The position numbers and the translations under genes were made by a program. This document shows, one piece after another, positions 1 to 19,152 of a DNA stretch of 28,204 nucleotides. Numbering within the stretch: position 1 is the stretch's first letter; the number at the start of each line of letters is the position of its first letter. The notes under the pieces were generated by a model. It did no database searches, was not told the DNA's origin, and saw only the letters and a program-made list of their open reading frames with translations. Origin of the DNA: a phage; the NCBI GenBank assembly GCA_021454005.1, contig GCA_021454005.1_3939.2. One strand, 5' to 3'.

Positions 1-191
1 AATTGATGGTTACAACTAACGTTAACACAAAGGTAAAACGTTTTTACATGCAAATTTGTGGCGTATGGTCTAGAATATCAGAATCTGACTATTGCAACTA
101 TGTAGAAACAGCTATAAACTCTAATTGCTACCTTACAAGAAATACTAAGAATTTTACAAGGCAAACAGCGATTTACTATTACGATAAATAA
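1..191 (+). CDS. hypothetical protein, 3' portion (may start upstream of the window)
   Basis: ORF in frame 3 ending TAA 189-191, immediately followed by a type-A cassette; no recognisable motif. Confidence 0.35.
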   Translation, partial: LMVTTNVNTKVKRFYMQICGVWSRISESDYCNYVETAINSNCYLTRNTKNFTRQTAIYYYDK

Positions 192-197
192 AAGTAC

Positions 198-280
198 TTT
201 ACATGGGGCTTATAGTTCGATAAAGTAAGCCCCAGATAAAGAGCTTTACCAAATTAACCCTTAAACTAGGAGATTCAAAA
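198..280 (+). promoter_or_regulatory. type-A leader cassette: TTTACA-N17-TAAAGT promoter-like hexamers enclosing hairpin GGGGCTTA/TAAGCCCC, then conserved SD (TAAACTAGGAGATTC..AAAATG)
   Basis: -35-like TTTACA 198-203, -10-like TAAAGT 221-226, inverted repeat 205-233, GGAG about 9 nt before ATG 281. Confidence 0.55.
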
Positions 281-664
281 ATGGCATATCGTGCACCTAA
301 ATTCATCAACAAAGACAACTTTCGCAACGCACTGGAGAAGTCACTTGATGAAAATTTTAAAGGCAACATTATCGTTGTTCACGCATTCAATTTTAAGTAT
401 GATGTAAACGGGAATAGAATCAACCATTACACGGCAACCATGTTAGATGGTACACTTTCAAGTGAAAAAGCCGTACTAAATGCACTGGCAGGACGTGGAA
501 AGGTATTAGTAAGATGTGATAAGAGACGTTATCAGGGCGGTGCATATGGTTATGATGATGCTGTTTACCATCTTGAAAATATGGGCTATCAAGTAGAAAA
601 AGCTGGAGCATCACAAATCATCGGCAGCGATGGTTATGTAACTATCTTCAAAATTAACAAATAA
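281..664 (+). CDS. hypothetical protein (127 aa)
   Basis: ORF with ATG directly after the conserved GGAG leader. Confidence 0.65.
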   Translation: MAYRAPKFINKDNFRNALEKSLDENFKGNIIVVHAFNFKYDVNGNRINHYTATMLDGTLSSEKAVLNALAGRGKVLVRCDKRRYQGGAYGYDDAVYHLENMGYQVEKAGASQIIGSDGYVTIFKINK

Positions 665-669
665 AGTAC

Positions 670-750
670 TTTACAAGGGGCTTATAGTTCGATAAAGTAA
701 GCCCCAGATAAAGAGCTTTACCACTCAATCCTAAATTGGAGAACTTAAAA
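670..750 (+). promoter_or_regulatory. type-A leader cassette (promoter-like hexamers + hairpin + SD)
   Basis: near-identical copy of the 198-280 cassette; TTTACA 670-675. Confidence 0.55.
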
Positions 751-1044
751 ATGGCTATTATCAAAAACGTTGTAATTACTGCAAAGACTCGTGATGACGC
801 TCGCGTTATGGCTAAAAAGTTATGCGGGAAAGTGGTTGACAATGGAAAACAATCTGCTGTAAGGTGGGGCGTGAAGGTTGATAAACAGTTGAAGTTAAAA
901 AATTCACCGATAAACCTTTTTACATGTGTAAACACTATCGGGAAGACAAATGTATACACGAAAAAGGCATACATTAGACGCGTAGCATTAACATCCCCCA
1001 TTCGTACAATGAGAAGTTATGCAAAGCTGAAAATTAACAAATAA
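751..1044 (+). CDS. hypothetical protein (97 aa)
   Basis: ATG at 751 preceded by GGAGAACTTAAAA; ORF-track start 736 lacks an SD. Confidence 0.6.
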   Translation: MAIIKNVVITAKTRDDARVMAKKLCGKVVDNGKQSAVRWGVKVDKQLKLKNSPINLFTCVNTIGKTNVYTKKAYIRRVALTSPIRTMRSYAKLKINK

Positions 1045-1049
1045 AGTAC

Positions 1050-1129
1050 TTTACAGGGGGCTTAAAAGCTGATACCTTAAGCCCCAGATAAAGAGCTTTA
1101 CCAATAAATCCTAAACTGGAGATTCAAAA
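1050..1129 (+). promoter_or_regulatory. type-A leader cassette, variant hairpin GGGGGCTTAA/TTAAGCCCC
   Basis: TTTACA 1050-1055; hairpin arms changed in a compensatory way. Confidence 0.5.
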
Positions 1130-1642
1130 ATGAAAACTGTAGACGCTACCTTTGAAGTTGTAAAAGAAAAATTCACTATTATTTATGAAGCTGTCAATTG
1201 CTTTGAAGCAAGCCATAATCTTGATAATTGGGAATTTACAGATGACCATCAAGGCGGTGTGACGATTAAAAATCCTAGCTGTCAGCGTAATGAATTTAAA
1301 TATGCAATCCCTTTACATTACAGCCTTAAACAGCTTTCAAGTGACTATGCAAAACAAGGCCGGGCAAATCCATCAAAAGAGGCTTACATCAGCTTACAGA
1401 AAGAACTAGAAAGAGATTTAGAGGCTTCAGAATATAACATTGCCGCGAAAGTTGTAGATGCAAATGGCAGCACTGTTTTAGAAAGTTTTTATATTGGTTA
1501 CGCTTTCGATTGGTGCTACAGTGACGGCGATGATTTAGAGGATAGACTAAAAGAAGAGGTGAACAACGCAGACGCAGAATCTGAAGTATTAGAACGTTTG
1601 GAATCGTTGAAAGACTCAGTGATGAATATCTTTAAGAACTAA
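1130..1642 (+). CDS. hypothetical acidic protein (170 aa)
   Basis: ORF after conserved leader; D/E-rich C-terminal half. Confidence 0.65.
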   Translation: MKTVDATFEVVKEKFTIIYEAVNCFEASHNLDNWEFTDDHQGGVTIKNPSCQRNEFKYAIPLHYSLKQLSSDYAKQGRANPSKEAYISLQKELERDLEASEYNIAAKVVDANGSTVLESFYIGYAFDWCYSDGDDLEDRLKEEVNNADAESEVLERLESLKDSVMNIFKN

Positions 1643-1651
1643 ATAGATTCC

Positions 1652-1734
1652 TTTACACGGGGTTATCAAGCTGGTAGGATAGCCCCAGATAAAGAGATTT
1701 ATCAAATAAAGCCCTTAAACTAGGAGATTCTAAA
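1652..1734 (+). promoter_or_regulatory. type-A leader cassette, variant hairpin GGGGTTATC/GATAGCCCC with -10-like TAGGAT at the conserved spacing
   Basis: TTTACA 1652-1657; hairpin arms co-vary relative to other copies. Confidence 0.5.
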
Positions 1735-2031
1735 ATGAAATTATCAAATAAAGTCCGTGAAAATTTAAGCAAGTTACTTAATAAAATTGATTTCATTGAA
1801 ACATCAAGAAATAGTCATGATGTTATGGAATGGTTACACGGAAAAATCAAAGGCCGTCGTGTAGTGATTTGCTTATGGAACAGTTGCAGGGAGTATAAAA
1901 AACCTGTATTGCAAGTCAATATTTATGATGATACTTTTAAAAGTCCTGTAAAATCTAAAAGCGATTTATTAGAATCCTATGAGATAACTGTAAATGGCAA
2001 AGTATCACGTAAAGAGGAAACACCATGTTAA
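1735..2031 (+). CDS. hypothetical protein (98 aa)
   Basis: ORF after conserved leader (GGAGATTCTAAAATG). Confidence 0.6.
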   Translation: MKLSNKVRENLSKLLNKIDFIETSRNSHDVMEWLHGKIKGRRVVICLWNSCREYKKPVLQVNIYDDTFKSPVKSKSDLLESYEITVNGKVSRKEETPC

Positions 2032-2357
2032 TGACTGGTATCACTGCAATCATTGCTATTTTCGCTCTATATAAGGCATATAAAGCCTATAATCTAGCAA
2101 ATAAGGCAACCACCCAGCAGGTTAGCAATAGCCTTGTAGAAAGCTTTCTAGGACGTTTAAGTGATGAGCAAATAAAGCGGCTAGAGATGAGCTTCAGATA
2201 TAAAGCGAAAACCTATCAGATAAGTGACATCTTCAAAGATAATTTTCAGTTAGTTGATGATTATAATTCTCTGATAAATGCTTTAAATGTCAGTGACTTA
2301 AAAGACTACTACGCTGTAATTGTTCAAGAATTGAGCAAACGAAAACAAAACTGTTGA
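2025..2357 (+). CDS. hypothetical small membrane protein (110 aa, N-terminal hydrophobic helix)
   Basis: ATG overlaps the upstream stop by 7 nt, GAGG upstream; N-terminus TGITAIIAIFALY is hydrophobic. Confidence 0.55.
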   Translation: MLMTGITAIIAIFALYKAYKAYNLANKATTQQVSNSLVESFLGRLSDEQIKRLEMSFRYKAKTYQISDIFKDNFQLVDDYNSLINALNVSDLKDYYAVIVQELSKRKQNC

Positions 2358-2446
2358 CACTGGTTTTTAGATAGATTAAATTACACATCAACGGGGAGGG
2401 AATGACCTTCCCCACTAAATAAAGTCCTAAACTGGAGATTCTGAAA
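2354..2446 (+). promoter_or_regulatory. type-B leader cassette: sigma70-like promoter TTGACA-N17-TAAATT, 5'UTR hairpin GGGGAGGG/CCTTCCCC, conserved SD
   Basis: TTGACA 2354-2359, TAAATT 2377-2382, G/C-rich inverted repeat, GGAG 9 nt before ATG 2447. Confidence 0.65.
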
Positions 2447-2605
2447 ATGTTTTGTGCAGGTGATAAAGTTGTCTGGAATGATATAGATGACGGTTTATGT
2501 ACGAAAGTTGTTGTTATCCTAGAAATTGATTATATCACTGGTGTTGCAACTGTAGCAGATAATGATATAATCTTTGATGTCTTAATTAGTGAACTGTCAA
2601 AATAA
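2447..2605 (+). CDS. hypothetical protein (52 aa; below the ORF-track size cutoff)
   Basis: ATG 2447 directly after conserved type-B leader; translated by hand to TAA 2603-2605. Confidence 0.5.
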   Translation: MFCAGDKVVWNDIDDGLCTKVVVILEIDYITGVATVADNDIIFDVLISELSK

Positions 2606-2630
2606 AACCCTTAAACTAGGAGCTTTTAAA

Positions 2631-2903
2631 ATGTACACTACTAACAATGGTCGCACCTTAAATGTCACCTTGCGTCACTATGTAGACGGTGTGATGTGCT
2701 TTGAAGATTTACGGGCTGAGCAACACATCTTAAATTGGCAAGTTGCAGGACTCCAAAAAACTGCTACAGGATACGGGAAAAAGATTCCAACCAGTTGGAA
2801 AGTATACTACGAAGGACGTTTACGCAGAATTTATCAAGATGTGCAAAGCAATAGCGCATCGAGTTACATTATAGTAAAAGGCAAAAAACTGCATTTAATG
2901 TAA
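2631..2903 (+). CDS. hypothetical protein (90 aa)
   Basis: ATG 2631 after CTTAAACTAGGAGCTTTTAAA; ORF-track start 2589 lacks an SD. Confidence 0.6.
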   Translation: MYTTNNGRTLNVTLRHYVDGVMCFEDLRAEQHILNWQVAGLQKTATGYGKKIPTSWKVYYEGRLRRIYQDVQSNSASSYIIVKGKKLHLM

Positions 2904-2908
2904 AGTAC

Positions 2909-2989
2909 TTTACAAGGGGCTTATAGTTCGATAAAGTAAGCCCCAGATAAAGAGCTTTACCACTAAATCCTAAATTGGAGAACTTAAAA
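2909..2989 (+). promoter_or_regulatory. type-A leader cassette (about 99% identical to 670-750)
   Basis: TTTACA 2909-2914; hairpin GGGGCTTA/TAAGCCCC. Confidence 0.55.
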
Positions 2990-3394
2990 ATGGCTATTAA
3001 TAACCGTGAATTATCAATTTTAAAAGCACGTTTGACCGTTAACCGGATTAATGTTATCACGTCATCAGCACCAGATGAAACACTGCAAAACATTATTGGG
3101 AAGATTCAAAGTGTTATCTTAGACGTTGAAAGCGTAAAAAACTCATTGACTGACGTTGCAGCAGGTATCACGCTAGACGGTGCACAACATGAAATGGCCG
3201 ACATGTTAGGCAAATCTAAGGTAATGAATAAAGAGTTAGATTTGAAAATGTTCCGATTTGCTGTTAAAGTGTGGTTATCTGTCGAGTATGATGCTAACTT
3301 TGCAATCGCTGACTTTTTCGCCACTTGGTTGCAGCGTAATTTGGCAAATCACGATTTCCGTAATATCTGCGATGCAATTTATGCAGAACTATAA
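2990..3394 (+). CDS. hypothetical protein (134 aa)
   Basis: ATG 2990 after conserved leader; ORF-track start 2975 lacks an SD. Confidence 0.6.
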   Translation: MAINNRELSILKARLTVNRINVITSSAPDETLQNIIGKIQSVILDVESVKNSLTDVAAGITLDGAQHEMADMLGKSKVMNKELDLKMFRFAVKVWLSVEYDANFAIADFFATWLQRNLANHDFRNICDAIYAEL

Positions 3395-3404
3395 AAAATT
3401 TTTG

Positions 3405-3497
3405 TTGACACTGGTTTTTAGATAGATTAAATTACACATCAACGGGGAGGGAATGACCTTCCCCACTAAATAAAGTCCTAAACTGGAGATTCTGAAA
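3405..3497 (+). promoter_or_regulatory. type-B leader cassette (100% identical to 2354-2446)
   Basis: TTGACA 3405-3410, TAAATT 3428-3433. Confidence 0.65.
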
Positions 3498-3701
3498 ATG
3501 GCTATTATTAATGGTTTAACCATTGAAACTACACACATCAAAGATATCAAAGTTGGTGATATAGTCCTTTCCCACGGCGTAGAAAAAACTGTCACTGCAA
3601 AGGATATCAAAGAGGATTCTTTCATGGGTAGGACTCTCTTCGGTGATTCTTATTGCTTAGGCTATCTTGCAGTTTTAAAAGTTGTCAAAAATAACAAATA
3701 A
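3498..3701 (+). CDS. hypothetical protein (67 aa)
   Basis: ORF after conserved leader. Confidence 0.55.
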   Translation: MAIINGLTIETTHIKDIKVGDIVLSHGVEKTVTAKDIKEDSFMGRTLFGDSYCLGYLAVLKVVKNNK

Positions 3702-3706
3702 AGTAC

Positions 3707-3787
3707 TTTACAAGGGGCTTAAAAGTTGATAACTTAAGCCTCAGATAAAGAGCTTTACCACTAAATCCTAAACTGGAGATTCTAAAA
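3707..3787 (+). promoter_or_regulatory. type-A leader cassette, variant hairpin GGGGCTTAA/TTAAGCCTC (G.U wobble)
   Basis: TTTACA 3707-3712; arms pair only with a G.U wobble. Confidence 0.5.
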
Positions 3788-4330
3788 ATGAAATGTTATC
3801 ACGGAACTACTCAAGAAAATTTCCTCAACCTGATTAATAACGGTGATAAACCATCAGGCGCATGGAATTGTTCGGATATGGACGGCAATTTTTACGTGTA
3901 TCCAGAAAATAAAATCTATGGCGACGATGATGAAGAGATAACATCGGAGGGCATTCAGCAAGCTCTAGGGAACGCCACTATTACGGCGGCCTTCCAGATG
4001 AAAACCCAAAATATTGTTATCTTAGAACTCGATATTCCAGATGATGAGCTAAATGATGATTATTCTTGTGATAATATGTCGAGTGTAGCAAGTTTTACAG
4101 AGTACTTTGATGTAAACTGGATTAAAAAGGTCTATACAACAGAGTTTAACGCTATGTATTCGCCTTTTTGTCTTCCTTCACTGGATAACCCAAATATGAA
4201 CTATCTTGATGAGACATTAGAACTACTTGCTAAAAGTGTTCAACAGTCGGACAGTATTCAGGTTTTTTGTGACATCATAGATACACTGACAGGAAACATT
4301 GCAGAAGAGGATTTAAAGAGCTTTTTCTAA
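3788..4330 (+). CDS. hypothetical strongly acidic protein (180 aa)
   Basis: ORF after conserved leader; runs of D/E (GDDDEE, DIPDDELNDDY). Confidence 0.65.
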   Translation: MKCYHGTTQENFLNLINNGDKPSGAWNCSDMDGNFYVYPENKIYGDDDEEITSEGIQQALGNATITAAFQMKTQNIVILELDIPDDELNDDYSCDNMSSVASFTEYFDVNWIKKVYTTEFNAMYSPFCLPSLDNPNMNYLDETLELLAKSVQQSDSIQVFCDIIDTLTGNIAEEDLKSFF

Positions 4331-4396: not shown

Positions 4397-4630
4397 ATGC
4401 TTACAACCGTTTATCTCATCCTCTCAATTTGTAATGGTCATTCATGCGATTTTAAAGGGCTTGAAGAGTTTACAGGAAGTAAAGAAAATGCTATTCAAGT
4501 TTGCCAGATAGCAAGACAAGACTATCCCGCCAGTGATGATATACAATGTTACTTTAAGACAGAAGATGAAGACGGTATCTATTTTGACAGCGTAGATGGT
4601 CAGTATGAAATTATCATTGAAAAAGACTAG
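4397..4630 (+). CDS. hypothetical protein (77 aa)
   Basis: ORF with AGAGGG 7 nt upstream of ATG; lacks the conserved leader. Confidence 0.5.
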   Translation: MLTTVYLILSICNGHSCDFKGLEEFTGSKENAIQVCQIARQDYPASDDIQCYFKTEDEDGIYFDSVDGQYEIIIEKD

Positions 4631-4722
4631 ACAAGCCTGATAAAAATCTGTAAATTGTCAATCAACGGGGAGGGAACGACCTTACCCACTAAGTACAATC
4701 CTTAAACTAGGAGATTCAAAAA
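4628..4722 (+). promoter_or_regulatory. type-B leader cassette (TAGACA-N17-TAAATT, hairpin, SD)
   Basis: -35-like TAGACA 4628-4633 overlaps stop codon TAG of the upstream gene; TAAATT 4651-4656. Confidence 0.55.
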
Positions 4723-5284: not shown

Positions 5285-5815
5285 ATGAACAAATTTCAAG
5301 CTATCAACTTCATTCGTTCAAATGCTGTAATGTCTAAGCCTGTAAAAGATACATACGAATTCCGTTGTAATGGGGTACATTTCGCAACAATCACCAAATC
5401 AGAAAACGGGGCTTATTACGTTCATCGTCGTAATGTTTCAACCGTTGTAGTCTCTCACTTTATGCAAGCTGTAGCGGAATTATTACCGTTATTCTTAGAG
5501 ATTTACTTAGATGAGTGTAAAAACGTTCACAACCACGTTAAAAGCCTTTTAAACGGTTATAAAATGGCTTATGAACGCTCTATCAAGTCCTTAAACAAGT
5601 TTTACAATGCACCTGCAAACACTGTTTCAATGGCTTATGATGTAAACGGTGAGTTAGTTAGTCTCTTTAAAGTGGAAGAAATTAAACTGTATAATCTACG
5701 TCCTAGTGGTTACTCTAAGACTCTTGGTGAAGGTTTAACGTTCAATATCAAGAACTTAGAAAAAACTTTAAAAGATATTGAAAAAGATATTGACGAGACA
5801 ATAAAAAGTCTGTAA
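5285..5815 (+). CDS. hypothetical protein (176 aa)
   Basis: ORF after conserved leader. Confidence 0.65.
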   Translation: MNKFQAINFIRSNAVMSKPVKDTYEFRCNGVHFATITKSENGAYYVHRRNVSTVVVSHFMQAVAELLPLFLEIYLDECKNVHNHVKSLLNGYKMAYERSIKSLNKFYNAPANTVSMAYDVNGELVSLFKVEEIKLYNLRPSGYSKTLGEGLTFNIKNLEKTLKDIEKDIDETIKSL

Positions 5816-5881
5816 ATTGTCAATCAACGGGGAGGGAATGACCTTCCCCACTAAATAAAGTCCTAAACTGGAGTTATCAAG
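5790..5881 (+). promoter_or_regulatory. type-B leader cassette (TTGACG-N17-TAAATT); -10 overlaps stop codon of the upstream gene
   Basis: TTGACG 5790-5795, TAAATT 5813-5818 (TAA 5813-5815 is the stop of CDS 5285-5815). Confidence 0.6.
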
Positions 5882-6211: not shown

Positions 6212-6460
6212 ATGGCAACTATCCGCGCTACTGTCAATGCCTATGGCTGTTATACTCTGGACGTTAAATTCGATATTGGTGGAACTGATGAGTGTTTTTC
6301 ATTAGTGAAGACAGTTATCAAACAAGTTATTCCAGATTATAACCCTACTGATGACTTCTGGAAAGATGCTGTAAAAGAGGCATTAAACGACGAGCATCAC
6401 TATCATTACTGGGGTGACTTGATTGTTTCCCTGTACTACAATAAACAAGGTTACAACTAA
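6212..6460 (+). CDS. hypothetical protein (82 aa)
   Basis: ATG 6212 after conserved leader; ORF-track start 6164 lies inside the leader hairpin. Confidence 0.55.
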   Translation: MATIRATVNAYGCYTLDVKFDIGGTDECFSLVKTVIKQVIPDYNPTDDFWKDAVKEALNDEHHYHYWGDLIVSLYYNKQGYN

Positions 6461-6498
6461 TCGACGCAGCGGGGCTAAATAGCCCCAGATACCTGAAC

Positions 6499-6523
6499 AG
6501 CCCCTATTTAAAGGGGCTTTTTA
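6499..6523 (+). terminator. intrinsic terminator AGCCCCT-ATTTAA-AGGGGCT-TTTTT ending the plus-strand small-gene array
   Basis: 7-bp perfect inverted repeat followed by T5; preceded by a second hairpin GGGGCT-AAAT-AGCCCC at 6470-6485. Confidence 0.7.
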
Positions 6524-6892
6524 CGTCTATCGAATCCTTATACAATCTCTTTCCATCACCTTTCCAGAATCTTCCCACTGATTCGATAGAACCTATCTCA
6601 TACCTTAAAAGCAATAACTCTATAGTCTACGCTATAACCTCTTATCAAATCAACTTAAATATAAGCCCATAACCCGAAAGGGAAGGGCAACCGTTTAAAC
6701 GCTCTATAAAGCTCTATAACAGCCTTATCAACCTAACTTAAGGGATTGCATTAACTCACCCTTAAAAGCCCTTTATAAAGCTTCTCAGAGACTTAAAAGA
6801 ATCTTATAAGGGTGTAAGCTTTATTATCTCGTTAGCTATCTTGTGAACTACTAAACAAGCCCCTTGATAGTAACTGAAAAGTATGTTATAGG

Positions 6893-6933
6893 GGCTATAA
6901 AGTTACGTAAAAGAGGCTATAAAGTTACGTAAA
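6893..6933. repeat. tandem direct repeat GGCTATAAAGTTACGTAAA x2 (22-bp period)
   Basis: identical 19-mers at 6893-6911 and 6915-6933. Confidence 0.8.
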
Positions 6934-7324
6934 TGCTAGCCCCCTTAACATCCTTTTAACAATTTCTTAACAATCCCTACATAGTTATGCTTTTAAGGCA
7001 CTTGTTAGCAACTTGTTAGCCCCTTGTTAAATCTCTGTTAAGACCACGTAAAAGCCTTGTAAGAGTCTTTGACATAGCCTTAAAAGCTCCTGTAAAGCCC
7101 TATAAAGAGCTATCTGTACATTTGGGGTGTAACTACTAGGAAGAGACTTAAAAGGGGCTATAAAGAGCTATAGAGAGCTTTTAAGAGGTATGTTTAAAGA
7201 ATCACTAAGAGGGAAAGGGAACGATAAGAAAAGAAGTAGTGACCATGTTAATAGCTTGTTAAAAAGATTAAACACTTGTTAGAAACTTGTTAATTATCTT
7301 AACAAAATAACTCTTTAAAATTAA

Positions 7325-7478
7325 CTTGTTAGCTCTTGTTAGTCATCTGTTAAGATTCTGTAAAGCCTATTCAGCACTTGTTAAGAAACTGTTAAAGCCT
7401 TGTTAGTTCTGTTAAGAATCTGTTAAGACCTTTGAAGAGTTGTTAAGAAGATGTGAGAACTGTTAAGAGATTGTTAAG
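7325..7478. repeat. array of at least 12 direct iterons (C)TTGTTA(A)G / CTGTTAAG at about 10-12 bp spacing
   Basis: copies start at about 7325, 7335, 7347, 7358, 7377, 7389, 7399, 7410, 7420, 7439, 7460, 7471; more copies at 7001-7045 and 7258-7300, some inverted. Confidence 0.75.
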
Positions 7479-8092
7479 GATATTTTAAAATTTTGCAAAG
7501 GGGATGTTACAGGGATGTTAAGGGCTACCAAGCAGATATACATCCTAGACAGATATTTTTCAGTTCCTTCAAAAACCCTAAAAAATGACTTGATAGTCCT
7601 ATTTTATAAAAATTTTAAAATTCTGAATAATTACCTAGACAGCCTTTTAAAAATACAGGTAATAACAGGCTTATAAGATACCTTGTTAGTACCGTGTTAG
7701 ACCTTGTGAGATAAGGTCTGTGAAGATATTCCTGTTAAGTTTGTTAAAACAGTCTATATAGAGGCTTAGTAATACCTAGTGAACACCTATAGAGGGTATC
7801 ATAGCTGACATAGAGATTAAGAGGTGTATAGGAGCTTCTAAGAGGGTATAGAGAGATAGTTAAGGTGATTGTATAGGTTGTTAAGAAGGCTTGTTAGAAG
7901 AGTGTTTAGATGGCTATTTAGAAGGGCTATACAGAGGGCTATTAAGACCACTAGATAGTTACTAAGATACTATATAGTACTATATAACTATATAGAGAGT
8001 AAGATTAAGAAGGTTGTTAAGAAGGATAGATATTTTGTTCACATATGATGGTGACCCAGAGGTTGGGACAACCGATAAAATTTTATAAAAGT

Positions 8093-8117
8093 AAAAAGCC
8101 CCCAATTAAGGAGGCTC
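8093..8117 (-). terminator. intrinsic terminator for the minus-strand operon (AGCCTCC-TTAATT-GGGGGCT + T5 as read on the minus strand)
   Basis: inverted repeat 8098-8116 followed on the minus strand by a U-run (A-run 8093-8097 on plus), 11 nt past stop 8128. Confidence 0.55.
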
Positions 8118-8127
8118 TTAAGATATT

Positions 8128-8676
8128 TTAAATCAGTGTTTCCAGAACTGTTTTTAGTGATGACTTGGTTGTCTGATAAAAATGAGTAAAGCCATTGTTG
8201 TTATCAAATACCTGCATCATGATATCATCTCCCTTGATTGGGTACACTCGGATATCATAGTGAAAACCATTAAAGACACAAGAACCACTACAGAATGTAC
8301 TAAAGTCAGCCACTGAGATATACTCTTCATGTCCTGTGATTTTTATACAAACACCTTTACTCGGTCTCTTAGGATTGATATCTTGCATCACAGACATACT
8401 CTGTCCACCAAGAGATACCATAGTGACCACTTTACGGTTCTTCTGTCTAAAGTACATCTTAACTTTCTGCAAAGTGTCTTCATAGAATGGATAAGACCTT
8501 TCTACAAAGATTCCTTCAAGTGGCTCTTTACCATTTTCAACTTCTCTGTTATGCCGTACTGCAAAGATAATTTGTTCGAACCAGTCAAGATTTTCTTCGG
8601 AGAGTGCTTCCCGAACATCCTTCCAGTCAAGTACTAAGTAGTTACCTTCAACTTCTTTTAAGTTATCTTTTTCCAT
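8128..8676 (-). CDS. hypothetical protein (182 aa from the internal ATG; the ORF extends to 8751)
   Basis: long minus-strand ORF; ATG 8751 has its GAGG abutting the start codon and overlaps the upstream gene by 62 nt, so Met26 at 8676 is preferred. Confidence 0.5.
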   Translation of the reverse strand: MEKDNLKEVEGNYLVLDWKDVREALSEENLDWFEQIIFAVRHNREVENGKEPLEGIFVERSYPFYEDTLQKVKMYFRQKNRKVVTMVSLGGQSMSVMQDINPKRPSKGVCIKITGHEEYISVADFSTFCSGSCVFNGFHYDIRVYPIKGDDIMMQVFDNNNGFTHFYQTTKSSLKTVLETLI

Positions 8677-11309: not shown

Positions 11310-11653
11310 TATAGTTTCCTCATTAAATACTTTTTAAGTTGTGTGTTAGGTTTCTCAAAAACTTCTATAGAAGATATCTTGACAGATTCACCACGCATAC
11401 CTGTGTGTTTGAATATATAGTACTCTAACATCCCTATATACTTTGCTGGTAAGTCATGTTTGACATACACCGTTACAGAATCTTCAAATTCAACAACCTT
11501 TGTACCATCTTTGTAGTTAAACTCTTTAGGATGGTTGTAGTTGTCGATGTCGTACATTAAAAAGAGTCTTTTCCGTTGCATATCAAGCTTATTTGTTAAA
11601 GACTCTTTGATATCTGAGAAGTTTTTGTACACTGTGACATGGAGCTTACTCAT
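11309..11653 (-). CDS. hypothetical protein (114 aa)
   Basis: ORF, translationally coupled to neighbours. Confidence 0.55.
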   Translation of the reverse strand: MSKLHVTVYKNFSDIKESLTNKLDMQRKRLFLMYDIDNYNHPKEFNYKDGTKVVEFEDSVTVYVKHDLPAKYIGMLEYYIFKHTGMRGESVKISSIEVFEKPNTQLKKYLMRKL

Positions 11654-11939
11654 CGTTAAACTCTCTGACGAAGAAATAGTTGACTTTGTTATTACCTACC
11701 ATAAGGTCAAAGCAGGTATTCTCAAAAGGTTTGTTGTAGGCATCATATGAAACATATGGGTCAGCTACTTGCTTAGTAGTGAGCTTTTTACTTGATGGGT
11801 TTAAGAGGCCACCATACAGTTTCTTGATAGCCTCTTCTACAACAGACCAGATGATTTCGTCAGTAATTTCTTCGTACAGGTCAAGTTCACGCTCTAGTGA
11901 GAAGTCACAAATAGGGAAAATAACCTGTACTTTACTCAT
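11646..11939 (-). CDS. hypothetical protein (97 aa)
   Basis: GGTGA 7 nt upstream of ATG. Confidence 0.55.
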   Translation of the reverse strand: MSKVQVIFPICDFSLERELDLYEEITDEIIWSVVEEAIKKLYGGLLNPSSKKLTTKQVADPYVSYDAYNKPFENTCFDLMVGNNKVNYFFVREFNDE

Positions 11940-12334
11940 TAACGAATCACCTGTGAGACTTGAATTGCTTCAGTTACTGACAAGTCACCTACTTTCTCTT
12001 CTTTGATAAAGGTGAAGGTAAGTTCAACAGGCTCTCGCTCTTCTTGCTCAACTGGAATACCATTAAGCTCATCAAAGATTGATTGGGTTGTCCAATCTTC
12101 ACCACCATCTGGGTAGTGGATTGCGTAAAGTGGAAACTCTAAATTATACCAAGCAAAAACAGGGCAACCATCTGCATCATCTCGACATCTGTGGAGATAT
12201 GTGTTTGTACCTTCAAAATGCAAATGGAGATTACCATTCTTCTCAAATAGAAGAGCATCTTGCAGGTCTAGTTCCTCATTTTCGCTGTAACGGCTGACAT
12301 CAACCTTAACATGGATATGACTGTTATTATTCAT
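11939..12334 (-). CDS. hypothetical protein (131 aa)
   Basis: GAGAGG 6 nt upstream of ATG. Confidence 0.55.
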   Translation of the reverse strand: MNNNSHIHVKVDVSRYSENEELDLQDALLFEKNGNLHLHFEGTNTYLHRCRDDADGCPVFAWYNLEFPLYAIHYPDGGEDWTTQSIFDELNGIPVEQEEREPVELTFTFIKEEKVGDLSVTEAIQVSQVIR

Positions 12335-14540: not shown

Positions 14541-15131
14541 TTAAGCTTTGGTCTTAAGTAGGTTCTTAAGTTTTTTAAGATTCATACTCTCATCAAACTT
14601 AAAACCAAATCCATTGACATAATCAATGAACTCGGATTTCTTACTGAGTGACAATGCGTAACTCATATCAAAGTTCTTACTTGTTTCTGCGTCTGGACTA
14701 GAGTTCACATCAAATGAAATTTCCGTAGGCTCTTGCTTACTTTTTCTCATATTATCAACCAACAAACATGTATAGTTTGCTGGATAGAAATTTACACTAC
14801 CATCAACGTAGCTGTACTTATTATTATGGATAAGGTTGGAAAATACCTTAAGGAATGTTTCTGAGTCGTGGCAAACAAGTTTGAATTGGCTGCTCTCTCC
14901 AAGCGCAACTAATGAGTACGGACTTTCACTATCAAAGTCATAATTTTGATTCGATGCCGTTACTGTTACACGCATCAAGTTATTAGCAATAGTCTTCTGT
15001 TTAAAAGAATTTTGAACATAGTGAAGACCTCTATCACACTGATTGACTAGCTCTTTAAGCAGGTCATTTGCATATGGTGAATTAATTGATACAGAGCCAT
15101 CACTATTGTAATTAAAACTTACTGTTAACAT
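14541..15131 (-). CDS. hypothetical protein (196 aa)
   Basis: AGGAG upstream of ATG. Confidence 0.6.
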   Translation of the reverse strand: MLTVSFNYNSDGSVSINSPYANDLLKELVNQCDRGLHYVQNSFKQKTIANNLMRVTVTASNQNYDFDSESPYSLVALGESSQFKLVCHDSETFLKVFSNLIHNNKYSYVDGSVNFYPANYTCLLVDNMRKSKQEPTEISFDVNSSPDAETSKNFDMSYALSLSKKSEFIDYVNGFGFKFDESMNLKKLKNLLKTKA

Positions 15132-15358
15132 TTTTCAGTTCTCCTGCGGTTTATAATTTTGCTGCAATAGAGAAACGAAGTAAACTCACTGGAAGAAACC
15201 ATTAAGTGTTGTTCACTAGATTGAGCCATTGCCCTGAAATACATTCCAGTCAAAGCATCATAGTGACTATTCTTTCCAATTGAGGTTATATAGCCATGAC
15301 TCTTTGCAGTTTGATATAAATCTATAATATCTGCGATTTCTAATTGGGAACTACACAT
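15125..15358 (-). CDS. hypothetical protein (77 aa)
   Basis: GAGGA 8 nt upstream of ATG; overlaps the neighbour by 19 nt. Confidence 0.45.
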   Translation of the reverse strand: MCSSQLEIADIIDLYQTAKSHGYITSIGKNSHYDALTGMYFRAMAQSSEQHLMVSSSEFTSFLYCSKIINRRRTEKC

Positions 15359-15501
15359 AGATAATCCTCTTGTCTTCTGTAATTTTGAAAGAACAGGTAC
15401 AGACCAATTTCAGAGGACGAATAGTAGATTAATTCTACCCTTTTTGATTCCTTACAGTGATTGGTATTCTTACCTTTCTTCGGTTTATTTGATTTTCTCA
15501 T
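15340..15501 (-). CDS. hypothetical small basic protein (53 aa), first gene of the minus-strand operon
   Basis: AAGGAG 6 nt upstream of ATG at 15501; the ORF-track start 15522 lacks an SD. Confidence 0.4.
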   Translation of the reverse strand: MRKSNKPKKGKNTNHCKESKRVELIYYSSSEIGLYLFFQNYRRQEDYLCVVPN

Positions 15502-15676
15502 TAAGTCTCCTTTGTAGAACAAGGCAGACCTACAGCTTTAAGTAAGATGGTACAGTAATCAATACAACAAGTCAAGAACTATTGCAAGTTAAAAAAGTTG
15601 TTGACAAAGTACTTGACAAGGTGTAGGCTTATAAATACTTAGAAGATAACTTAAAAGGTTCCTCTAAAAAGGCTAT

Positions 15677-15697
15677 TTAAACAGATATCTTTCTGGA
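15677..15697. promoter_or_regulatory. palindrome AGATATC-TTTCTG-GATATCT in the divergent promoter region (operator-like)
   Basis: perfect 7-bp inverted repeat between the divergent operons; TTGACA hexamers at 15599 and 15615. Confidence 0.4.
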
Positions 15698-15750
15698 TAT
15701 CTATCTTTTATCTTAAAAGCCTTTTAAGAGGTCTTATAAGAGGCATACCA

Positions 15751-16122
15751 ATGAAAAACAGAACAAACAAAGGCCAGTTTAAAAAAGGCCAGTCTGGAAA
15801 CCCATCTGGAAGACCAAAAGGCTCTCGTAACAAAAGCTCACTTGTAAAAGCTCAACTGACCATTGATAATTCTGCTGAGTTTGCTGCAAAGTTGTTTGAG
15901 GCGGTTGTTACAAGGGATGCTGCTAAGCTTGCAGAGTTCGGTTTGACGACTGACGATGTAAACCTGAAGTCGATGATGGAGGCTGGTAAAACCATCATGA
16001 CTCACTCAGCAGGTGAGATGAAAGCGATTGCAGCAGACACTAAGAAGACCCCTGATAATGGTGGTCAGTCTCAGACAGATAACAAACCAACGTTCTCTGC
16101 TGTAGCGACTCTCAAAAAATAA
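15751..16122 (+). CDS. hypothetical protein with basic N-terminal motif KKGQSGNPSGRPKG (DUF5681-like, from memory)
   Basis: AAGAGG 8 nt upstream of ATG; N-terminus GQFKKGQSGNPSGRPKGSRNK. Confidence 0.6.
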   Translation: MKNRTNKGQFKKGQSGNPSGRPKGSRNKSSLVKAQLTIDNSAEFAAKLFEAVVTRDAAKLAEFGLTTDDVNLKSMMEAGKTIMTHSAGEMKAIAADTKKTPDNGGQSQTDNKPTFSAVATLKK

Positions 16123-16134
16123 TTTTAAAAGGTG

Positions 16135-16164
16135 TTGACAGACTCTACAAAGTTGCTCTAAAGT
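16135..16164 (+). promoter_or_regulatory. promoter TTGACA-N18-TAAAGT overlapped by inverted repeat GACAGACT/AGTCTGTC
   Basis: hexamers at 16135-16140 and 16159-16164; 8-bp inverted repeat arms overlap both hexamers. Confidence 0.5.
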
Positions 16165-16203
16165 CTGTCACATCAACAAACAAATGAGAGAAGAGAGTAA
16201 AAT

Positions 16204-17619
16204 ATGAGCGAATTATTTAAACATGCGCACCTTCATGCAGGTCGAACTGAAAATGGTGCTGTAAACCATACTTCATCAATGTCTGCTCTTGTAGACTTTT
16301 ACAAAGCTGCTGGTTCAAGCCGTAGCAACGTAGAAATCTTACCAGACCTGTTCTACAAAGCTTTGCGTGAGGATGTTGATGTTGCAGTTCGTATTTTGCT
16401 TCATATGCGAGATGTACGAGAAGGTATGGGTGAGCGTAAAGCCTTCAGAACTGTTTTACTTCAAGCGATTGAAGACAAAGTTTTAGAGCCTACGCAGGTT
16501 CTTCGCATTATGGATAAGATTGCAGAACTTGGTCGTTTTGATGACTTCAAAATCTTCGTAGGTACTCGTTTCGAGACAGATGCCTTCAAACATCTAGAAG
16601 CAGCATTACTAGACCCTGCAACAGCAGGTTTGGCGGCTAAGTGGTTACCACGAGTCAAACCACGTCATAAGCAGTTTGTAAAACGTTTCTGCAAGTTTGC
16701 CAACTTGAGTGAGAAAGAGTACCGCACACTGTTGTCTGCACTATCTGATACAGTTGAGCAAAAAATCTCTGCTAATGAGTTTGGTAAGATTGACTACAGT
16801 AAGATTCCTTCACTTGCTGCTGCACGTTACCAAAAACTGTTTAACCGCAAAGATGGAGAACGCTACAAAGCTTACATCGAGTCCTTATCAAAGGGTGAGG
16901 CTAAGATTAATGCTGGTGCTGTTTACCCATACGATGTAATTAAATCTGTTAAGCATGGTAATGCAGATGTTGCTAATGAGCAGTGGAAAGCACTACCAAA
17001 CTGGATGGCAGAGGGTGAAAACATCTTGTGTATGTCTGATGTTTCAAGCTCAATGTCTTGGGTGAATTTTGGTTCAATTACTGCTCTTGATATTGGTGTT
17101 TCACTTGCATTGTATGTAGCAGAACGTAATACAGGTTGCTTTAAGAATGAGTTGATGGTTTATTCAACAAACCCTCACTTCATCGAACTGAGTGGTGATT
17201 TACGAAACCGTCATCGTCAGGTGATGCGACACGTTGAATATGGCTCAACTAACTTACAAGCAGCTTTTGACCGTATTCTTGAAACAGGTAAAAGAAACAA
17301 CTTGACTCAGAAAGATATGCCAAGTAAGCTTATCATCTTCTCCGATATGGAGTTCAATCAGGTTGATGGAGCTAACGGTCGTACAAACTTTGAAGCAATT
17401 CGTAGTAAGTACAAAAAAGCTGGATACGAAATGCCTCAACTGGTATTCTGGTACTTAGCAAACCGTAATGGTACTTGCGAAGTATCTGTTAAGGATAACG
17501 GTGTGGCAATGGTATCTGGTTTTTCTCCAGCTACTTTAAAAGCTCTGCTTGGTGGTGAGAAGTTTGACCCAATCAGCGTAATGCTCAAAGCAGTAATGAT
17601 TGACCGTTATATCTGGTAA
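16204..17619 (+). CDS. vWA-domain protein (MIDAS motif D-x-S-x-S) with N-terminal region resembling DUF2828/TROVE-like proteins
   Basis: 471-aa ORF; DVSSSMS (MIDAS-like) at about residue 280 and downstream IIFSDMEF; N-terminal TENGA...SALVDFY...R..DVREGMGER pattern recalled from DUF2828-type proteins. Confidence 0.7.
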   Translation: MSELFKHAHLHAGRTENGAVNHTSSMSALVDFYKAAGSSRSNVEILPDLFYKALREDVDVAVRILLHMRDVREGMGERKAFRTVLLQAIEDKVLEPTQVLRIMDKIAELGRFDDFKIFVGTRFETDAFKHLEAALLDPATAGLAAKWLPRVKPRHKQFVKRFCKFANLSEKEYRTLLSALSDTVEQKISANEFGKIDYSKIPSLAAARYQKLFNRKDGERYKAYIESLSKGEAKINAGAVYPYDVIKSVKHGNADVANEQWKALPNWMAEGENILCMSDVSSSMSWVNFGSITALDIGVSLALYVAERNTGCFKNELMVYSTNPHFIELSGDLRNRHRQVMRHVEYGSTNLQAAFDRILETGKRNNLTQKDMPSKLIIFSDMEFNQVDGANGRTNFEAIRSKYKKAGYEMPQLVFWYLANRNGTCEVSVKDNGVAMVSGFSPATLKALLGGEKFDPISVMLKAVMIDRYIW

Positions 17620-17637
17620 AAAGTTTTAAAAAGGGTA

Positions 17638-17666
17638 TTGACAATGTGTTTGATACCCTTTAATAT
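17638..17666 (+). promoter_or_regulatory. strong sigma70-like promoter TTGACA-N17-TAATAT flanked by inverted repeat AAGGGTAT/ATACCCTT
   Basis: hexamers at 17638-17643 and 17661-17666. Confidence 0.65.
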
Positions 17667-17728
17667 GTTCTACATAGAAACGAAACGAGAGCTTTTCTAA
17701 GATACTGAAAAATATTTTAAAAAAGTTC

Positions 17729-17758
17729 TTGACAACCACTAAAAAATAATGTTAAAGT
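17729..17758 (+). promoter_or_regulatory. promoter TTGACA-N18-TAAAGT with inverted repeat AACCACT/AGTGGTT, 27 nt upstream of the first tRNA
   Basis: hexamers at 17729-17734 and 17753-17758. Confidence 0.55.
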
Positions 17759-17784
17759 GGTTACATAGAGTTTGAAAAGTTTAT

Positions 17785-17861
17785 CTCTGTTTAGCTCAGC
17801 TTGGTAGAGCGTTCCGTTTGGGGCGGTAAGGCCGGAGGTTCAAGTCCTCCAACAGAGACCA
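17785..17861 (+). tRNA. tRNA-Pro (anticodon TGG)
   Basis: hand-folded cloverleaf: acceptor CTCTGTT/AACAGAG, anticodon loop TTTGGGG, T arm GGAGG-TTCAAGT-CCTCC, CCA encoded. Confidence 0.7.
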
Positions 17862-19108: not shown

Positions 19109-19123
19109 ATTTCAATAAAGTTG

Positions 19124-19152
19124 TTGACATTGAGATGTGACTACTTTATAGT
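19124..19152 (+). promoter_or_regulatory. sigma70-like promoter TTGACA-N17-TATAGT inside the tRNA array
   Basis: hexamers at 19124-19129 and 19147-19152; about 200 nt of unassigned sequence follows before the next tRNA. Confidence 0.6.

Follow-up and report, generated by a model that had tools for sequence, protein, structure and literature searches.

What is an inverted repeat doing inside a promoter? The question is raised by a phage DNA of 28,204 nucleotides (nt) (GenBank assembly GCA_021454005.1, contig GCA_021454005.1_3939.2; this whole stretch is called the window below), in which three promoters, P1 (at 16135), P2 (17638), and P3 (17729), and a family of repeated cassettes, type A, combine promoter hexamers with such repeats. 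A first reading of the sequence alone (the sequence-only reading) had described a shared layout, with a -35 hexamer followed by an inverted repeat whose 3' arm overlaps or abuts the -10 hexamer, and had proposed operators for dimeric regulators or a structure-dependent class of promoters. Our analysis points to another role. With moderate confidence, we interpret P1, P2, and the type-A cassettes as composite promoter/hairpin elements, in which the hairpin stops or attenuates transcripts arriving from upstream.

The window belongs to the genus Felixounavirus (Ounavirinae). The 2.3 kb around P1 to P3 are 99.7% identical to Escherichia phage vB_EcoM_ASO1A (ASO1A) and match 253 Felix O1-like records. 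Altogether, 45 loci related to P1 to P3 were gathered from IMG/VR (a viral contig collection), metagenomes, and GenBank. A pattern scan of related IMG/VR contigs yielded 105 distinct type-A copies with 49 distinct cores, and the full ASO1A genome was assembled for a genome-wide scan.

The positions and sequences of all three hexamer pairs were confirmed (Table 1). TTGACA or TTTACA, a spacer of 17 to 18 nt, TAnnnT, and UP-like A/T tracts are present at P1 to P3 and at all type-A copies. At P1 to P3, a near-consensus UP-like tract (AAAAA(T/G)..TTTTAAAA(A)) lies upstream of the -35 hexamer (at approximately 16113-16131 for P1), which suggests very strong promoters, and ACAT stands at the expected start site of all three. 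The ASO1A record annotates P1 as a promoter and carries no annotation for P2, P3, or the type-A promoters and hairpins. The P1 hexamers are kept in 43 related loci. TAAAGT, which had been singled out as a recurring -10 signature, was rejected as a special -10 hexamer, since both relatives and cassette paralogs deviate from it: it is replaced by TAGAGT in relatives of P1 and by TATAGT in relatives of P3, and the 49 type-A cores use about a dozen -10 hexamers (TATCTT in 16, TAAAGT in 8, TAAGAT in 6, and others). Its recurrence in the window is mainly due to three copies of a single cassette subtype.

The inverted repeats of P1, P2, and type A exist and exceed chance. All arms quoted in the sequence-only reading were found, including GGGGCTTA/TAAGCCCC in type A, and those of P1 and P2 proved longer (9 bp) than it had stated. 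Hexamers were held fixed, all other positions were shuffled, and repeats at least as long were counted; the 9-bp repeats of P1 and P2 gave p=0.004 and p=0.008, and the repeat of the type-A cassette at 198 gave p=0.006. The RNA folds had energies of -12.2 kcal/mol for P1, -12.6 kcal/mol for P2, and -15.3 kcal/mol for type A, with z scores over these elements ranging from -2.1 (P1) to -4.4. The P2 fold (z -3.95) was flagged as terminator-like.

The type-A cassettes, six copies of which lie at 198-3742, reveal what is selected. Across the retrieved copies, the -35 hexamer TTTACA is invariant, and the -10 hexamer is TAnnnT except in one TAAAGC variant and in copies with a 1-nt insertion; T-12, A-11, and T-7 are the only -10 positions kept. 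Using a covariation alignment (A3) of loop-trimmed, equal-length, ungapped cassette sequences, we detected covariation across 46 variants. Pairing was retained in 98.6% of cells versus 87.1% after shuffling (0 of 500 shuffles), the covariation score was 0.317 versus 0.116 (again 0 of 500), and slid controls did not exceed 59%. Both partners change in three pairs (UA/AU, AU/UA, and AU/CG/UA/UG). Pairing is thus kept through two-sided changes, in line with the earlier idea that form rather than sequence is conserved. On the sense strand, the nine stem positions comprise 401 Watson-Crick, 35 G·T, 2 A·C, and 12 other cells. The plus-strand fold is the more stable one in 33 of the 49 variants; for the variant at 1652, the values are -14.2 kcal/mol (plus strand) and -9.5 kcal/mol (minus strand). 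These data show that the type-A hairpin is under selection for sense-strand pairing, and that selection acts separately on the invariant positions of the promoter hexamers. Since TAnnnT and stem pairing are both retained, the -10 hexamer and the sense-strand stem are selected within the same nucleotides. The tolerance of G·T but not A·C on the sense strand argues for a single-stranded (RNA) structure and not for a protein reading duplex DNA. A structure-dependent class of promoters, the second of the earlier proposals, does not fit: the elements have consensus sigma-70 hexamers and UP-like tracts, and TAnnnT is kept independently of the stem.

Two promoters stand in tandem before the tRNA cluster; P2 is the first of them and has an UP-like tract upstream. 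Here the layout of a -35 hexamer followed by the repeat is inexact: the 5' arm starts upstream of the -35 hexamer, which lies partly in the loop and partly in a stem of 12 pairs (counting G·U) that takes in its TTGA. The 3' arm does meet the -10 hexamer, its last base being the first T of TAATAT, and TTT stands just before this hexamer. Among the related loci, the arms vary at 1 of 18 sites versus 6 of 9 free loop sites (Fisher p=0.0017), and the sole arm change, A>G, yields U·G. The 12-pair stem has four substitutions, none of which breaks plus-strand pairing, and the plus-strand fold is more stable in seven of seven variants. Judging from the sequence, termination would occur approximately 5 to 8 bp before the predicted start site.

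P1 is predicted to drive the 471-amino-acid (aa) DUF2828/DUF7788 gene at 16204. Its repeat can be extended to 12 pairs if one C·A mismatch is allowed. Across the related loci, the arms are mostly conserved, and every one-sided transition gives G·U, so that pairing at P1 rests on conservation and wobble changes. Because P1 is palindromic, its reverse complement (16171-16142, minus strand) also scores as a promoter (GTGACA N18 TAGAGT); no minus-strand gene lies downstream of this match.

P3, upstream of tRNA-Pro (17785), is not preceded by a stop codon or followed by an open reading frame (ORF). Its repeat is nonsignificant against shuffles (p=0.09), and the fold reaches only -6.7 kcal/mol. A C>T change cuts the repeat to 4 perfect bp in ASO1A and in approximately one-third of the related loci, and a G>T change introduces a mismatch in one related locus. 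The six most divergent loci, those of Mooglevirus-type relatives, have a different repeat of 6 bp, AACACT N7 AGTGTT, in place of the P3 repeat. The P3 repeat is probably fortuitous or marginal. In the tRNA region, the best hexamer match (TTGACA at 19124, N17, TATAGT) is bracketed by the 7-bp repeat ATAAAGT/ACTTTAT (19115-19149), with the 5' arm upstream of the -35 hexamer and the 3' arm running into the -10 hexamer; this repeat is also nonsignificant (p=0.06, z -1.4). Chance accounts for P3 and perhaps for the 19124 promoter, but not for P1, P2, and type A.

The genome-wide scan of ASO1A detected repeats of at least 8 bp at 8 of 37 intergenic promoter-like sites versus 0 of 101 coding ones; when only independent loci were counted, the intergenic fraction was 5 of 25 (Fisher p=0.0002). 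Random 56-nt windows contain such repeats in 7.6% of intergenic and 1.0% of coding cases. Inverted repeats are thus a property of intergenic DNA in this phage. The sequence-only reading had named a similar repeat frequency at random positions as the outcome that would undo its proposal; similarity is rejected against the whole genome and only weakly against intergenic DNA. As that reading had held, the arm sequences are mutually unrelated, and no palindrome has a second occurrence in the 87.6-kb genome.

The placement of the repeats relative to the genes is regular. At P1, P2, and all six type-A copies, the 5' arm begins 10 to 16 nt past the stop codon of the upstream plus-strand gene (13 nt past the DUF5681 stop codon, TAA 16120-16122, at P1, and 10 nt past that of the 471-aa gene, TAA 17617-17619, at P2). 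The 3' arm reaches no further than the predicted start site, and at P1 it ends exactly there. In type A, the predicted start is the A of CAGATAAAG, after the hairpin, and the conserved AGATAAAGAGCTTTAC begins exactly at the expected transcription start. Therefore, only polymerases coming from upstream would transcribe both arms. At the three promoters found in divergent regions (ASO1A 24062+, 24036-, and 64929+), which receive no same-strand transcription from upstream, the best repeat is 5 bp or shorter.

We propose that each element nests a strong sigma-70-type promoter and a hairpin-forming repeat within the same 40 to 50 bp. The stem-loop would form at the 3' end of upstream transcripts and terminate or attenuate read-through, and the neighboring transcription units would thereby be insulated. 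Transcripts from the embedded promoter would lack the 5' arm, form no hairpin, and be unaffected. Overlapping the two signals would economize space in intergenic regions of 80 to 100 nt. By analogy to promoter-coupled terminators, a polymerase bound at the promoter may assist termination at hairpins without a U-tract. Promoter activity, start sites, folding in vivo, and the terminating or attenuating effect are what we infer from these arrangements.

Several points weigh against this interpretation. Most of the hairpins are without the U-tract that marks a canonical intrinsic terminator (the P1 hairpin is followed by CATCAACAAAC, the type-A hairpin by AGATAAAGAG), and their loops are long (11 to 17 nt), which is poor for termination. 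At P1, no covariation was found among the related loci (91.7% paired versus 91.9% in shuffles), and the minus-strand fold is more stable in 10 of 15 Felixounavirus variants, meaning no preference for the sense strand. The evidence at P1 is ambiguous, and because of these minus-strand folds a role in sense RNA is not demonstrated there. The homologues in Erwinia Kolesnikvirus have repeats of only 5 bp, and deep conservation is therefore not shown. Promoter-like sites are only about 2.6-fold enriched over general intergenic DNA (p=0.037), a modest factor because random intergenic windows are already rich in repeats. Finally, our literature search retrieved no transcriptome, start-site, RNA-end, or reporter data for Felixounavirus.

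Some of these points suit an explanation in which the hairpins act in RNA without terminating, as protective stem-loops at 3' ends or as processing signals, similarly to intercistronic stabilizers. The stabilized message would be that of the upstream gene, after read-through and cleavage. The sense-strand pairing supports this explanation as much as it supports termination, the hairpins stand directly past stop codons, and missing U-tracts and loops too long for efficient intrinsic termination are what it would lead one to expect. However, it leaves the tight nesting with the promoters unexplained, space saving aside, and an analogous stem-loop of T4-type phages (PeSL; see below) lowered expression of a downstream reporter about as a strong terminator does (PMC2839356). 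The roles of stabilizer and terminator are, moreover, not mutually exclusive. We regard stabilization without termination as somewhat unlikely; it stays a serious alternative because most of the hairpins have no U-tract.

A variant of the termination hypothesis, to which we give little weight, is that the hairpins are conditional terminators, whose efficiency is set by the polymerase or a phage factor occupying the embedded promoter. If so, redistribution of host polymerase during infection would change read-through, and Felix O1-like phages, for which neither polymerase modifiers nor a mechanism of temporal control are known, would own a built-in device for timing and insulation.

Could the overlap be functionless, with independent signals crowded into the intergenic regions of a compact genome and the repeats of P3 and the 19124 promoter arising by chance? 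The repeat content of random intergenic windows, the nonsignificant repeats at these two promoters, and the loss or relocation of the P3 repeat in relatives are all compatible with this. Yet the repeats of P1, P2, and type A each beat their shuffles, the same placement between stop codon and start site recurs in unrelated sequences, and promoter-like sites exceed even the intergenic background. As a general explanation, we consider crowding quite improbable.

Operators for dimeric DNA-binding regulators of phage or host origin, which would repress or time the promoters, were the first proposal of the sequence-only reading, and we now hold them to be very unlikely. The palindromes do overlap the -35 and -10 hexamers, which is where repressors act; sequence conservation is seen in the arms of P1 and P2, P1 is without strand preference, and the palindrome of a terminator can also serve as a transcription-factor site, e.g., for LexA at yobI/ruvA (bioRxiv 10.64898/2026.08.19.745784). 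However, four unrelated arm sequences, in palindromes that each occur once per genome, would call for a separate protein at each site, i.e., four regulators. A protein reading the duplex would not select for compensatory changes with G·T but not A·C, as seen in the type-A arms. In addition, the half-site centers lie 21 to 26 bp apart, and the loops span 4 to 21 nt overall.

The least probable explanation, to our mind a far-fetched one, places the repeats in DNA, either as extruded cruciforms or hairpins that modulate promoter opening or, at P1, as a mirror-image promoter on the minus strand: the promoter-like match and the more stable fold on that strand would suit it, but the G·T versus A·C asymmetry means that only one strand pairs well, loops of 11 to 17 nt extrude poorly, the promoters have consensus sigma-70 elements, and an antisense P1 promoter would have no gene to express.

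Overall, the sequence-only reading was largely right in its observation, apart from the weak P3 repeat and the TAAAGT signature, and partly right in its interpretation.

Table 1. Coordinates of promoters, inverted repeats, and cassettes in the window, and of the regions compared with ASO1A
Feature	Position	Strand	Details
P1 promoter	16135..16164	+	-35 TTGACA 16135-16140; 18-nt spacer; -10 TAAAGT 16159-16164
P1 inverted repeat	16136..16170	+	TGACAGACT 16136-16144 / AGTCTGTCA 16162-16170; 9 bp; 17-nt loop
P2 promoter	17638..17666	+	-35 TTGACA 17638-17643; 17-nt spacer; -10 TAATAT 17661-17666
P2 inverted repeat	17630..17661	+	AAAGGGTAT 17630-17638 / ATACCCTTT 17653-17661; 9 perfect pairs
P3 promoter	17729..17762	+	-35 TTGACA 17729-17734; N18; -10 TAAAGT 17753-17758
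P3 weak inverted repeat			AACCACT 17734-17740 / AGTGGTT 17756-17762; 7 bp
UP-like A/T tracts of P1, P2, P3	16113-16134, 17620-17637, 17708-17728		directly upstream of -35
Type-A copy	198..233	+	TTTACA; GGGGCTTA 205-212; -10 TAAAGT 221-226; TAAGCCCC 226-233; follows stop codon 189-191
Type-A copy	670..705	+	arms 677-684 / 698-705; -10 TAAAGT 693-698; follows stop codon 662-664
Type-A variant	1050..1085	+	GGGGCTTAA 1057-1065 / TTAAGCCCC 1077-1085; -10 TACCTT
Type-A variant, compensatory arm changes	1652..1686	+	GGGGTTATC 1659-1667 / GATAGCCCC 1678-1686; one U·G pair; -10 TAGGAT
Type-A copy	2909..2944	+	arms 2916-2923 / 2937-2944; -10 TAAAGT
Type-A variant	3707..3742	+	GGGGCTTAA 3714-3722 / TTAAGCCTC 3734-3742; one G·U pair; -10 TAACTT
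Indel comparison regions	window 1-289 / 659-760 and 3696-3791		versus ASO1A record 8528-8628, 11566-11661, 11901-11997

P1 lies between the DUF5681 gene (15751-16122) and the 471-aa DUF2828/DUF7788 gene (16204-17619), and P2 and P3 lie between the latter and a cluster of 26 tRNAs starting at 17785. Small plus-strand ORFs, each with a repeated cassette before it, form an array in the left 6.5 kb of the window. Compared with the 99%-identical ASO1A, the window shows two indels, and each comprises exactly one unit made up of a small ORF and a type-A cassette; the extra unit in the window is at approximately 290-659, and the extra unit in ASO1A is at 11661-11901 of the record. The end points of both indels fall inside type-A cassettes, a signature that would be expected from recombination between copies.

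A second cassette, type B, is found at 2354-2413, 3405-3464, 4628-4687, and 5790-5849. It has a TTGACA-like -35 hexamer, N17, and TAAATT, followed by approximately 10 nt ending in ATCAAC and then by the hairpin GGGGAGGgaatgaCCTTCCCC. This hairpin begins 10 nt past the -10 hexamer, a few nucleotides from the predicted start site, so that most or all of it would lie in the transcript of its own promoter; it may be a 5' stabilizer or attenuator. The ASO1A record annotates the type-B hairpins as terminators.

Further overlaps of promoter-like sites and hairpins were noted. At the ASO1A rIIA/rIIB junction, TTGACA-AGGGGCTtcaaAGCCCCT-TAGAAT holds an entire hairpin within the spacer. A minus-strand site at ASO1A 58899-58945 has a 13-bp repeat with the -35 hexamer in the loop and the -10 hexamer in the 3' arm. 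After nrdD in ASO1A, a true terminator with a run of ten Ts (AAGGTGATGT...ACATCACCTT) starts directly after TTGACA. On the minus strand of the window, the promoter-like sites 12799-12750 (TTGACA N17 TATCTT) and 10731-10679 (TTGACC N17 TATGAT) are followed after 0 to 3 nt by strong U-tract terminators, AGGCTCCttcgGGAGCCT+T6 and GGGAGCTATCgagaGGTAGTTCCC+T5, respectively. Transcripts from these two sites would start inside the 5' arm and escape termination.

As for the surroundings, the 471-aa protein is called 'RNA-binding protein' or 'vWFA protein' in some records. Its relatives at approximately 40% identity are widespread in unrelated phage contigs; those in IMG/VR are too distant for promoter comparison. 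A Y-RNA-like element beside the DUF2828/DUF7788 gene was considered and is unsupported, because an Rfam scan of 15400-17800 returned no known RNA family. Between the rightward small-gene array and the leftward genes lie approximately 1.6 kb that are gene-free by annotation (window ~6460-8128; ASO1A record 14665-16312). Several short palindromes and repeats occur there, e.g., two copies of TTACGTAA spaced 14 nt apart, TATATAGTactatataACTATATA, and TTAACA motifs in a cluster.

How do these elements compare with known systems? Symmetric operators of the LexA or lambda CI type resemble them in that a palindrome covers the -35 and/or -10 hexamer. Unlike such operators, they share no half-site, their spacing is variable and long, and their arms evolve in a compensatory and wobble-tolerant manner. 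Hairpin promoters are also known from phage N4, whose virion RNA polymerase is a dedicated enzyme that recognizes stems of 5 to 7 bp with 3-nt loops, without sigma-70 hexamers. The present elements, with loops of 11 to 17 nt and consensus-like sigma-70 hexamers, differ from them, and Felix O1 encodes no RNA polymerase (Felix O1 genome paper).

Closer is the likeness to promoter-coupled terminators, hundreds of which were described in A. baumannii, E. coli, and B. subtilis (Fletcher, Forrest et al., bioRxiv 10.64898/2026.08.19.745784). In these, stem-loop DNA lies over the -35 hexamer and a T-tract precedes the -10 hexamer; termination occurs within 35 bp of a same-strand start, with a peak at approximately 10 bp. 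They are enriched between tandem genes, the coupled promoter raises termination, and the palindrome sometimes doubles as a transcription-factor site (bioRxiv 10.64898/2026.08.19.745784). P2 has this geometry, with its stem over the -35 hexamer and TTT just before the -10 hexamer, and P1, P2, and the type-A cassettes lie between tandem plus-strand genes. In contrast, the 3' arms of P1 and type A lie over or past the -10 hexamer, and there is no T-tract.

Closest are the promoter-early stem-loop (PeSL) cassettes of the T4-type phages RB49/phi1, T4/PST, and KVP40/nt-1 (Arbiol et al. 2010, PMC2839356; Comeau et al. 2014, PMC4122927). Their stem-loops lie between the -35 and -10 hexamers or overlap the latter, tolerate G-T pairs, often have polyG/polyC stems, and terminated transcription in a lacZ reporter (PMC2839356); recombination between copies shuffles ORFs (PMC2839356; PMC4122927). 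At the level of sequence, the type-A cassettes show every PeSL characteristic: an upstream stop codon in an A/T-rich tract, sigma-70 boxes, a G-T-tolerant stem-loop (here with GGGG/CCCC stems), a Shine-Dalgarno sequence, and a start codon, repeated among small ORFs. Near-identical phages also differ by ORF-plus-cassette indels that end inside cassettes. An upstream stop codon together with a downstream Shine-Dalgarno sequence and start codon is found at P1 and the six type-A copies; P2, which would drive tRNAs, has the stop codon only. P1, P2, and type A fold at -12 to -15 kcal/mol with stems overlapping the boxes, and P3 is marginal. Like PeSLs, type A forms a repeated, sequence-conserved motif of approximately 100 bp clustered among small ORFs in a hyperplastic region, which the single-copy P1 to P3 do not, and P2 and P3 would drive tRNAs instead of an ORF. 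Moreover, the host of these elements is a Felixounavirus and not a T4-type phage, they have no sequence similarity to the T4-type cassettes, and promoter activity, terminator activity, and mini-circle formation are at most predicted here.

The design is thus already known from T4-type phages and bacteria, and what we describe is a new example and no new mechanism. Our literature search found no earlier description of such elements in Felix O1-like phages, and the Felix O1 genome paper left terminator read-through and temporal control unexplained. The promoter-plus-hairpin design would extend to an unrelated myovirus lineage, the Ounavirinae, and offers a concrete account of how tandem early genes may be insulated from each other. 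The cassettes suggest how small ORFs come and go between near-identical phages. In practice, the elements could improve annotation and are relevant to the engineering of Felix O1-like therapeutic phages.

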